A stretch of 64,000 nucleotides of DNA, taken from assembly GCA_012557565.1 (NCBI GenBank), contig GCA_012557565.1_3926.1, one strand, 5' to 3'. Positions 49,845 to 50,009 of this stretch are shown here, one piece after another. Below the pieces are notes generated by a model. That model worked only from the letters and a program-made list of their open reading frames with translations. It ran no database searches and was not told the DNA's origin. Each line of letters starts with the position of its first letter. The stretch's first letter is position 1. The DNA comes from a phage. A program made the translations under genes and the position numbers.

Positions 49845-49862
49845 AAAGTTTTAAAAAGGGTA

Positions 49863-49891
49863 TTGACAAAGTGTTTAATACCCTTTAATAT
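49863..49891 (+). promoter_or_regulatory. sigma70-like promoter with palindrome spanning the -35
   Basis: TTGACA, 17 bp, TAATAT; AAGGGTATT ... AATACCCTT inverted repeat. Confidence 0.5.
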
Positions 49892-49952
49892 GTTCTACAT
49901 AGAAACGAAAAAGAAGTTTTCTGAAATAAATCAAATTATTTTAAAAAACCTC

Positions 49953-49982
49953 TTGACAGACACTAAAAAATAGTGTTATAGT
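49953..49982 (+). promoter_or_regulatory. sigma70-like promoter with palindromic spacer
   Basis: TTGACA, 18 bp, TATAGT; ACACTA ... TAGTGT inverted repeat in spacer. Confidence 0.5.
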
Positions 49983-50009
49983 TGTTACATAGGTTCTTAA
50001 AAAGATTAT

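Follow-up and report, generated by a model that had tools for sequence, protein, structure and literature searches.

The 165-nucleotide gap between a DUF2828/DUF7788 gene and a cluster of 25 tRNA genes, within a 64,000-nucleotide stretch of phage DNA (assembly GCA_012557565.1, contig GCA_012557565.1_3926.1; the whole stretch is hereafter called the window), holds two sequences of the sigma-70 promoter type, P1 and P2, and two palindromes, one over the −35 element of P1 and one in the spacer of P2. With moderate confidence we read this boundary as a pair of tandem promoters in which palindrome 1 forms an RNA stem-loop (hairpin 1), merged with P1 into a composite of the kind known as promoter-early stem-loops (PeSLs), and in which palindrome 2 is without demonstrable function. 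The sequence features themselves, the over-representation of the promoter class, the purifying selection on hexamers and stem and the variation that preserves pairing are direct observations.

Positions 49700–50100 of the window are 100% identical to Shigella phage SFPB (Mooglevirus, Ounavirinae, Felix O1 group; an 88.5 kb genome, labelled L076 in our set), and about 250 related genomes contain this region at 85–99% identity. The gap stretches from the end of a gene of 471 amino acids (48429–49844, plus strand), whose TAA stop codon occupies 49842–49844, to the tRNA-Pro gene at 50010. Over the first ~25 kb the annotation coordinates of SFPB are shifted relative to the window, and the window's own open reading frame (ORF) calls were used there. 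The elements of the gap are as follows.

49846–49862, plus strand: A/T-rich UP-element-like tract of P1, AAGTTTTAAAAAGGGTA; nucleotide diversity 0.005; its AAA doubles as the 5′ base of hairpin 1
49855–49886, plus strand: hairpin 1, AAAGGGTATTGA / loop CAAAGTGT / TTAATACCCTTT; 12 base pairs including one G-U, 8-nucleotide loop
49863–49868, plus strand: −35 hexamer of P1, TTGACA; TTGA in the stem of hairpin 1 and CA in its loop; invariant in 33 distinct relatives
49886–49891, plus strand: −10 hexamer of P1, TAATAT, after a 17-nucleotide spacer; overlaps a short T-tract 3′ of hairpin 1
49897–49899, plus strand: predicted start of P1, A49897 or A49899, in the conserved TACATAG; placed by the usual 6–8 nucleotides past the −10
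49934–49952, plus strand: UP-element-like A/T tract of P2, AATTATTTTAAAAAACCTC; diversity 0.057
49953–49958, plus strand: −35 hexamer of P2, TTGACA; invariant in all relatives, the Erwinia Kolesnikvirus phages included
49960–49976, plus strand: palindrome 2, ACACTA-AAAAA-TAGTGT, inside the 18-nucleotide spacer of P2
49974–49982, plus strand: extended −10 of P2, TGT followed by TATAGT, with TG preceding the −10
49989, plus strand: predicted start of P2, the A in TACATAG, 7 nucleotides past the −10 and 21 nucleotides 5′ of tRNA-Pro; placed by spacing

Tandem promoters upstream of the tRNA cluster

P1 (TTGACA-17-TAATAT, 49863–49891) agrees with the sigma-70 consensus (TTGACA and TATAAT, 16–18 nucleotides apart) at 10 of 12 hexamer positions and P2 (TTGACA-18-TATAGT, 49953–49982) at 11 of 12, the latter with TG before its −10; they lie 90 base pairs apart. 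A scan with a generic consensus promoter found no enrichment over shuffled sequence. The motif TTGACA-N16-18-TAnnnT is present 29 times as against 4.45 ± 2.07 in shuffles (6.5-fold), and 24 of these 29 matches fall on the plus strand, where most of the coding lies. Once the upstream A-tract is included (AAAA-N5-TTGACA-N16-18-TAnnnT) there are 10 matches, both P1 and P2 among them, where 0.04 are expected, a 250-fold excess; an A-tract 4–6 nucleotides 5′ of the −35 is common to all 14 of the 14 promoter candidates that were aligned. The tract of P1 resembles the UP consensus of Escherichia coli.

Phylogenetic footprinting, in which nucleotide diversity was calculated over the 33 distinct relatives, leads to the same conclusion. 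Both −35 hexamers have a diversity of 0.0, the −10 hexamers of P1 and P2 have values of 0.01 and 0.057, and the 14 nucleotides after the −10 of P1, which make up its start region, have 0.013, compared with 0.119 between P1 and P2 and, in the adjacent gene, 0.167 at third codon positions. The sole variant of the P1 −10 is TAAGAT in a separate lineage (L032), where TAnnnT is retained. The −10 of P2 reads TATAGT, TAAAGT, TATGAT or TAAGAT, with positions 1, 2 and 6 invariant, and in the Erwinia Kolesnikvirus phages P2 takes the form TTGACA-17-TATGAT or TAAGAT with TAnnnT intact. The 17-nucleotide spacing of P1 is constant. In the loop of hairpin 1 the two bases that belong to the −35, CA, are invariant while the other six vary, which argues that P1 is selected in its own right.

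Because the class is over-represented and the footprinting agrees, we accept P1 and P2 as probable sigma-70 promoters of the 25-tRNA operon. An earlier sequence-only reading of this DNA had proposed two tandem promoters ahead of the tRNA cluster with palindromes in or around their core elements; both promoters and both palindromes are found exactly where it placed them, and the proposal of tandem promoters is borne out by motif over-representation and footprinting alike.

Two further candidates in the gap were rejected. The start-region motif TACATAG (searched as GTTnTACATAG with at most one mismatch) was not taken for a genome-wide signal, with 10 matches where 5.2 are expected and none at other promoters. 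A 19-nucleotide A/U-rich inverted repeat between P1 and P2 (49911–49929 / 49936–49954) was dropped, as RNAalifold did not keep it in an alignment of 31 relatives.

A probable RNA hairpin at the end of the upstream gene

Palindrome 1 comprises AAGGGTATT (49856–49864) and AATACCCTT (49877–49885), which lie within perfect 10-nucleotide arms, AAAGGGTATT and AATACCCTTT (49855–49864 and 49877–49886). As RNA of the plus strand it folds into hairpin 1, which begins 10 nucleotides past the stop codon of the upstream gene and has a predicted stability of −13.5 kcal/mol (z −2.9; equalled by 1 of 200 shuffles); the fold of the minus strand is weaker, at −10.7 kcal/mol. Among 10 distinct sequence variants taken from about 30 relatives, 99.2% of alignment cells are paired, compared with 35–57% when the 3′ partners are slid. 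Four pairs vary, in each case in the right arm only, and all stay paired (U-A to U-G, A-U to G-U, G-U to G-C); pairing is broken once, at the stem base. The U-A to U-G changes break the dyad symmetry of the DNA and would leave C-A mismatches in the minus-strand RNA. Since these arm changes keep the pairing of the plus-strand RNA yet break the dyad, an RNA stem fits them better than a protein-binding site. The left arm, which is at the same time the A-tract and −35 of the promoter, never varies, and with one arm frozen in this way double-sided covariation is impossible and a shuffle control for covariation is uninformative.

The orthologous sequence in Felix O1, gggtattgacaatgtgtttaatacccttt at 23547..23575, has been published as the predicted rho-independent terminator t42, with its complement as t43 (Whichard et al. 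2010, Viruses 2:710; PMC3185647 Table 2). It occupies the same place, directly after gene 42, and differs from window positions 49858–49886 by one base in the loop. The assignment of t42 was a TransTerm/MFOLD prediction and the weakest plus-strand entry of that table, with 10.2 kcal/mol and a tail of three T; the consensus −35 within t42 and the −10 after it went unremarked, and neither P1 nor P2 figures in the authors' list of promoters (PMC3185647). The window's hairpin is likewise admitted by the lax terminator criterion of our scan tool, as its Felix O1 orthologue was by TransTerm. In view of its weak terminator features we describe hairpin 1 as a leaky terminator, an attenuator or a protector of the 3′ end, and palindrome 1 is most likely an RNA hairpin that ends the upstream gene.

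Palindrome 2

Palindrome 2 is of a different quality. In a 46-nucleotide context it folds with −7.6 kcal/mol (z −0.83), a value matched by 34 of 200 shuffles, and the isolated 6-base-pair hairpin is worth −4.0 kcal/mol. The palindrome is perfect only in Mooglevirus: the same position reads (C/T)CACTA..TAATGT in Felixounavirus and Suspvirus and ACACTA..TAATGT in the separate lineage L032, and the Erwinia Kolesnikvirus phages have nothing comparable, although they keep P2. On our reading palindrome 2 is a weak, lineage-restricted inverted repeat without demonstrable function.

Weighing the alternatives

A number of observations count against the interpretation put forward here. Literature searches found no mapping of transcript ends, 5′ or 3′, for Felixounavirus or Ounavirinae. 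Reverse-transcription PCR (RT-PCR) of Felix O1 showed ORFs 41, 42 and 44 to peak at 25 min and ORFs 45–49 at 5 min (PMC3185647); ORF44, which lies in the tRNA cluster downstream of P1 and P2, is among the 25-min transcripts, and the 5-min ORFs 45–49 are downstream of a promoter internal to the cluster. Early firing of P1 and P2 is therefore not shown by the RT-PCR, and the timing fits with separate transcription units around this region. Hairpin 1 shows no double-sided compensatory changes, so that covariation cannot prove the stem. Intrinsic terminators have a G+C-rich stem with a U-tract of about 7–9 nucleotides directly after it, and hairpin 1 makes a poor one, with three G-C pairs, an 8-nucleotide loop, the tail UUUAAUAU and a d'Aubenton-Carafa-type score of −29, where canonical terminators in this genome reach +20 to +42. 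Perfect inverted repeats of at least 6 base pairs within 18 nucleotides are found in 3 of the 16 spacers of intergenic TTGACA promoters versus 0.55% of all 18-mers; as spacer palindromes are enriched among promoters, palindrome 2 may be something other than pure chance, namely a degenerate member of the same promoter/hairpin habit. Finally, the phage encodes a conserved helix–turn–helix (HTH) protein of the Cro/CI type, a point that also speaks for the operators considered below.

Of the competing explanations the first is that the cassettes, P1 with hairpin 1 included, are mainly short repeated homologies for the gain and loss of genes and that whatever the hairpin does in transcription is secondary, which we think unlikely. 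It can draw on the joint presence of the DUF2828 gene, P1 and hairpin 1 in Felixounavirus, Mooglevirus and Suspvirus and their absence from Kolesnikvirus, in which the order is a homologue of the promoter at 48363, a tRNA-like element and P2. Promoters with the common block tttAAAAAnnnnnTTGACA, near-identical cassettes repeated at 36118, 37447 and 37770, and the precedent set by the PeSL papers (PMC2839356, PMC4122927) likewise favour it. The argument turns, however, on one presence/absence contrast, with no breakpoint mapped to a cassette, and the model by itself leaves the pairing-preserving substitutions unexplained. P1 as a specific duplicate of P2 was considered and rejected: 63 of 2000 shuffles reach their alignment score, which is no higher than that of other promoter pairs and reflects a likeness generic to the class.

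The second competing explanation, which strikes us as quite improbable, is that hairpin 1 is simply the 3′ hairpin of the upstream gene, that P1 is a fortuitous match and that only P2 serves the tRNA operon, as in the Erwinia relatives. Kolesnikvirus phages do have the P2 homologue alone ahead of tRNA-Pro, the −10 of P1 (TAATAT) matches the consensus at just four of six positions, and the stem takes in four of the six −35 bases, whose conservation would be expected regardless; in the Felix O1 genome paper, too, the hairpin is entered as a terminator and P1 is missing from the promoters. What a terminator would not explain is the sparing of the −35 bases in an otherwise variable loop, the near-invariance of the −10 and the next 14 nucleotides, which exceeds what a terminator tail would account for, the 17-nucleotide spacing that never changes, and the position of the A-tract of P1 at the same distance from TTGACA as in the other promoters of the class.

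The sequence-only reading had taken the palindromes for operators and concluded that the tRNA operon is under repressor control. That inference is unsupported, given that hairpin 1 is the orthologue of t42, that its variants preserve RNA pairing, that palindrome 2 is bound to one lineage and that neither palindrome has a second copy. On such a model one or both palindromes would be double-stranded DNA sites for a dimeric repressor, for instance a host factor or the 99-amino-acid HTH_3 (Cro/CI-type) protein annotated as 'transcriptional regulator' (L076:20943-21242, outside the window), which would occlude the −35 or the spacer and set the timing of the tRNA operon. In its favour are the dyad symmetry over core promoter elements at both sites, the classic geometry of palindrome 2 (6-base-pair half-sites with centres 11 base pairs apart and 17 base pairs in total) and a diversity of 0.063 in the P2 spacer as against 0.12–0.17 in neutral sequence. 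The HTH_3 protein, moreover, is found in the same ~259 Mooglevirus, Felixounavirus and Suspvirus records as P1 and hairpin 1; in the Erwinia relatives, which are without both palindromes, it was not detected. This co-distribution is, though, a single phylogenetic contrast.

Searches of the 64-kb window, in which palindrome 2 is unique, and of the other 27 kb of SFPB, with 2–3 mismatches allowed, recovered no second copy of either palindrome. The two have no half-site in common, and both are unlike the palindrome found at the promoter that heads the operon of the regulator. In every Felixounavirus and Suspvirus sequence palindrome 2 is imperfect, despite the conserved regulator. In half of the distinct variants of palindrome 1, A-to-G changes at one or two positions break the dyad and keep the RNA pairing. 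Its 10-base-pair arms are separated by 12 variable base pairs, so that the half-site centres lie 22 base pairs apart, an unusual distance for a small HTH dimer. At other promoters of this phage, described below, unrelated hairpins take up all positions relative to the −35 and −10, which argues for a structural role of the RNA and not for one sequence-specific repressor. Control by a repressor acting at these palindromes is accordingly, in our estimation, highly improbable.

The promoter of the regulator's own operon (TTGACA-16-TATACT, L076:21840-21905, minus strand) bears nested palindromes, CTGACGGG..CCCGTCAG around CCTATATA..TATATAGG, that cover the −10 and the start region; they are unrelated to palindromes 1 and 2 and plausibly form an autoregulatory site.

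A proposed mechanism for the boundary

From these features we infer that the promoters are active, where transcription starts and that the hairpin terminates transcripts or stabilises them; taken together, this suggests the following course of events around a boundary whose flanking elements are listed here.

48429–49844, plus strand: upstream gene, 471 amino acids, DUF2828 and DUF7788 (from the list of ORFs; Pfam PF25043 6e-44, PF11443 1e-26)
50010–55238, plus strand: 25 same-strand tRNA genes, tRNA-Pro first (ARAGORN, Rfam)
51514–51542, plus strand: promoter-like site inside the tRNA cluster (promoter scan), corresponding to Felix O1 promoter P45 at window position 51514
55396–55413, plus strand: terminator-like hairpin with T6 past the last tRNA; score about −1.5, borderline

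Transcripts of the DUF5681 and DUF2828 genes would form hairpin 1 right after the stop codon, its left arm supplied by the UP and −35 sequence of the promoter and its right arm by the complementary stretch in the P1 spacer. On these incoming transcripts the hairpin may bring about partial termination, attenuation or protection of the 3′ end. Host sigma-70 RNA polymerase would bind P1 and P2 by way of the UP-like tracts and the consensus −35, with help from the extended −10 at P2, and transcription would start at about 49897–49899 (P1) and at 49989 (P2) and proceed through the 25-tRNA cluster. The transcripts of P1 itself would begin downstream of hairpin 1 and hence be without it. The internal promoter at 51514 would add to transcription of the cluster, which probably stops at the hairpin and T6 of 55396–55413, the probable end of the tRNA operon. 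The tRNAs would then be cut from the transcript by host RNases, a route of tRNA release that is well established.

Promoters and stem-loops across the genome

The arrangement at P1 is not an isolated one. A simple hairpin of −10 kcal/mol or stronger overlaps 5 of the 16 intergenic TTGACA promoters, compared with 3% of random windows. We put forward only tentatively that Ounavirinae possess a genome-wide, PeSL-like system in which host-type promoters are interwoven with stem-loops at every position and of which P1 with hairpin 1 is one member.

Individual promoters illustrate the range of layouts. The one between rIIA and rIIB (25808–25836) has a spacer hairpin, GGGGCT-N4-AGCCCC, 14 nucleotides past the rIIA stop and before rIIB. 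Over 24 distinct relatives its stem and hexamers are almost invariant, with four forms of the loop and one stem change in each of two relatives; in the distant relative L074 the hairpin at this promoter is a different one and overlaps the −10. The promoter at 38009–38038 has the same kind of G+C-rich spacer stem (GGGGCT-N4-AGCCCC), and at the promoters 5468, 23367 and 36546 the −10 lies in a hairpin loop. In the small-ORF region (35–38 kb) near-identical cassettes stand at 36118–36144, 37447–37473 and 37770–37796, with variants near 35180 and 36880; each consists of a TAAAGT −10, then a ATCAACGGGGAGGGAATGACCTTCCCC hairpin and then a ribosome-binding site, ..CCTAAACTGGAG, and three copies are present where none is expected. 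By analogy, these repeated cassettes resemble repeated PeSL units.

The promoter of the DUF2828 gene itself (TTGACA-17-TAGAGT, 48363) is wholly enclosed in a hairpin, 48354–48405, GGTGTTGACAGGTT...AGTCTGTCTCACC, close behind the stop codon of the preceding gene. One of the hairpin's pairs is G-C, G-U or A-U among relatives, which is covariation on the plus strand, and two more pairs alternate between wobble and Watson-Crick forms. At two promoter-like sites, 22588–22639 (plus strand, TTGACA-16-TATTAT) and 43216–43163 (minus strand, TTGACA-18-TATGAT), a strong canonical terminator hairpin with a T-tract follows after 0–2 nucleotides; these are either the upstream flanks of terminators or composites of promoter and terminator of the 'downstream of −10' type. 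A 'double −35', TTGACA-N6-TTGACA followed by N3-TGT, occurs exactly at 673–690 and 47832–47849, in both of the divergent intergenic regions that head two rightward gene blocks, and with at most one mismatch it has 9 matches where 0.81 are expected; it may represent a distinct class of promoter or an activator site.

Genomic neighbourhood

An Rfam scan of 47500–56500 at E <= 0.01 returned matches of the tRNA type only; in the promoter region it detected neither a leader nor a regulatory RNA family. The ARAGORN tRNA-Met at 50258–50334 was not recovered by Rfam at this threshold, and a weak extra tRNA-like match of Rfam at 50918–50992 was not called by ARAGORN. Within the cluster, a spacer element of about 80 nucleotides is present in two copies (50174–50250 and 50337–50412), 5′ of tRNA-Met and of tRNA-Asn, with the pattern TT(G/T)ACAGAAGACC..TTACAGCAAACA ... 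GGTCTGGT. Salmonella phage PK6 (L008, about 1800–1910) carries an insertion of about 105 base pairs between the P2 start region and tRNA-Pro, which is G+C-rich and structured in appearance, and at whose end the leader sequence AAAAGTTTATCTC is duplicated.

On the other side of the gap, the relatives of the DUF2828/DUF7788 gene are annotated 'RNA-binding protein' or 'vWFA protein'. Distant homologues with 30–40% identity adjoin same-strand tRNA clusters in unrelated large phages (metagenomic viral contigs L037, L040, L042 and L043), which hints that the function of this protein family is tied to phage tRNAs; no comparable downstream layout of hairpin and promoter was seen at the distant DUF2828 homologues L036, L037 and L040–L043. 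In Kolesnikvirus (Erwinia phage Panisse, L005:1858-1930; also L013) a tRNA-like element stands in place of the DUF2828 gene; it has a 2-nucleotide 'anticodon' and a long flanking stem, with a homologue of the 48363 promoter on its 5′ side and the homologue of P2 on its 3′ side.

Significance

The genome paper of Felix O1 stated that the temporal regulation of such phages is unknown (PMC3185647). The present analysis puts a place on the probable start of the tRNA operon in the Felix O1 group, whose members are widely used as therapeutic and typing phages, and changes little for biology at large. It joins the published terminator t42 to a promoter and removes an unsupported inference of repressor control. 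Already known was the orthologue of hairpin 1 as a predicted terminator; the rest is a new case of a known kind, the composite promoter/stem-loop cassette. The enrichment of promoters with stem-loops is of modest value; if confirmed, it would aid the annotation of transcription units in about 250 Ounavirinae genomes. Should the genome-wide system prove real, the cassettes would insulate neighbouring transcription units and would constitute portable blocks of homology for the gain and loss of genes, such as the DUF2828/DUF7788 gene that lies beside tRNA clusters in several unrelated phages, and the PeSL mechanism, so far described in T4-like phages alone, would extend to a second, unrelated lineage of myoviruses.

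Comparison with known systems

The tandem arrangement recalls the rRNA and tRNA operons of E. coli, which are driven by tandem P1–P2 promoters with UP elements; a UP consensus was reportedly defined by Estrem and colleagues in 1998. Common to both are two strong promoters of the sigma-70 type, predicted ones in the phage, about 100 base pairs apart, A/T-rich upstream elements and an operon of stable RNAs processed by RNase P and other RNases. Unlike the E. coli promoters, those described here have no GC-rich discriminator (GTTCTAC and TGTTAC), and stringent or growth-rate control is therefore not expected.

With operators of the lambda Cro/CI type and with MerR-type spacer operators the palindromes share a dyad over the −35 or in the spacer, and palindrome 2, at 17 base pairs with an A/T centre, is like lambdoid sites. 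They differ from such operators in that the sites are unrepeated, have no half-site in common and show a symmetry that is not conserved across relatives. The spacer of MerR-type promoters is typically 19–20 nucleotides long, unlike the 18 nucleotides of P2.

The closest likeness is with the PeSLs, composite cassettes of early promoter and stem-loop situated 3′ of an upstream stop codon in the T4-like phages RB49/phi1, T4/PST and KVP40/nt-1 (Arbiol et al. 2010, PMC2839356; Comeau et al. 2014, PMC4122927). In those phages the stem-loop serves to terminate transcription, and genes are shuffled as modules by way of the cassettes (PMC2839356, PMC4122927); the stem-loop takes one of five positions, between the boxes, overlapping the −35 or the −10, or upstream or downstream of them (PMC2839356). 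Our literature search found no paper linking Ounavirinae with promoter stem-loops. The boundary studied here has the same layout of upstream stop codon, AT-rich tract, consensus sigma-70 −35 and −10 and stem-loop, and all five positions of the stem-loop occur among the promoters of this phage, hairpin 1 corresponding to the 'overlaps −35' class and palindrome 2 to the 'between −35 and −10' class. There are differences as well: hairpin 1 is AU-rich in place of a polyG/polyC stem, and P1 and P2 precede genes for stable RNAs and not ORFans. PeSLs form a repeated family of motifs that gathers in hyperplastic regions of small ORFs; in this genome repeated cassettes are seen in the small-ORF region, and the hairpins of P1 and P2 are unique sequences. 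Terminator activity, formation of mini-circles and recombination have been demonstrated for the PeSLs of T4-like phages and are putative for the cassettes described here. Given that Ounavirinae are not T4-like, P1 with hairpin 1 would be a cassette that works like a PeSL, and not a member of the described set.

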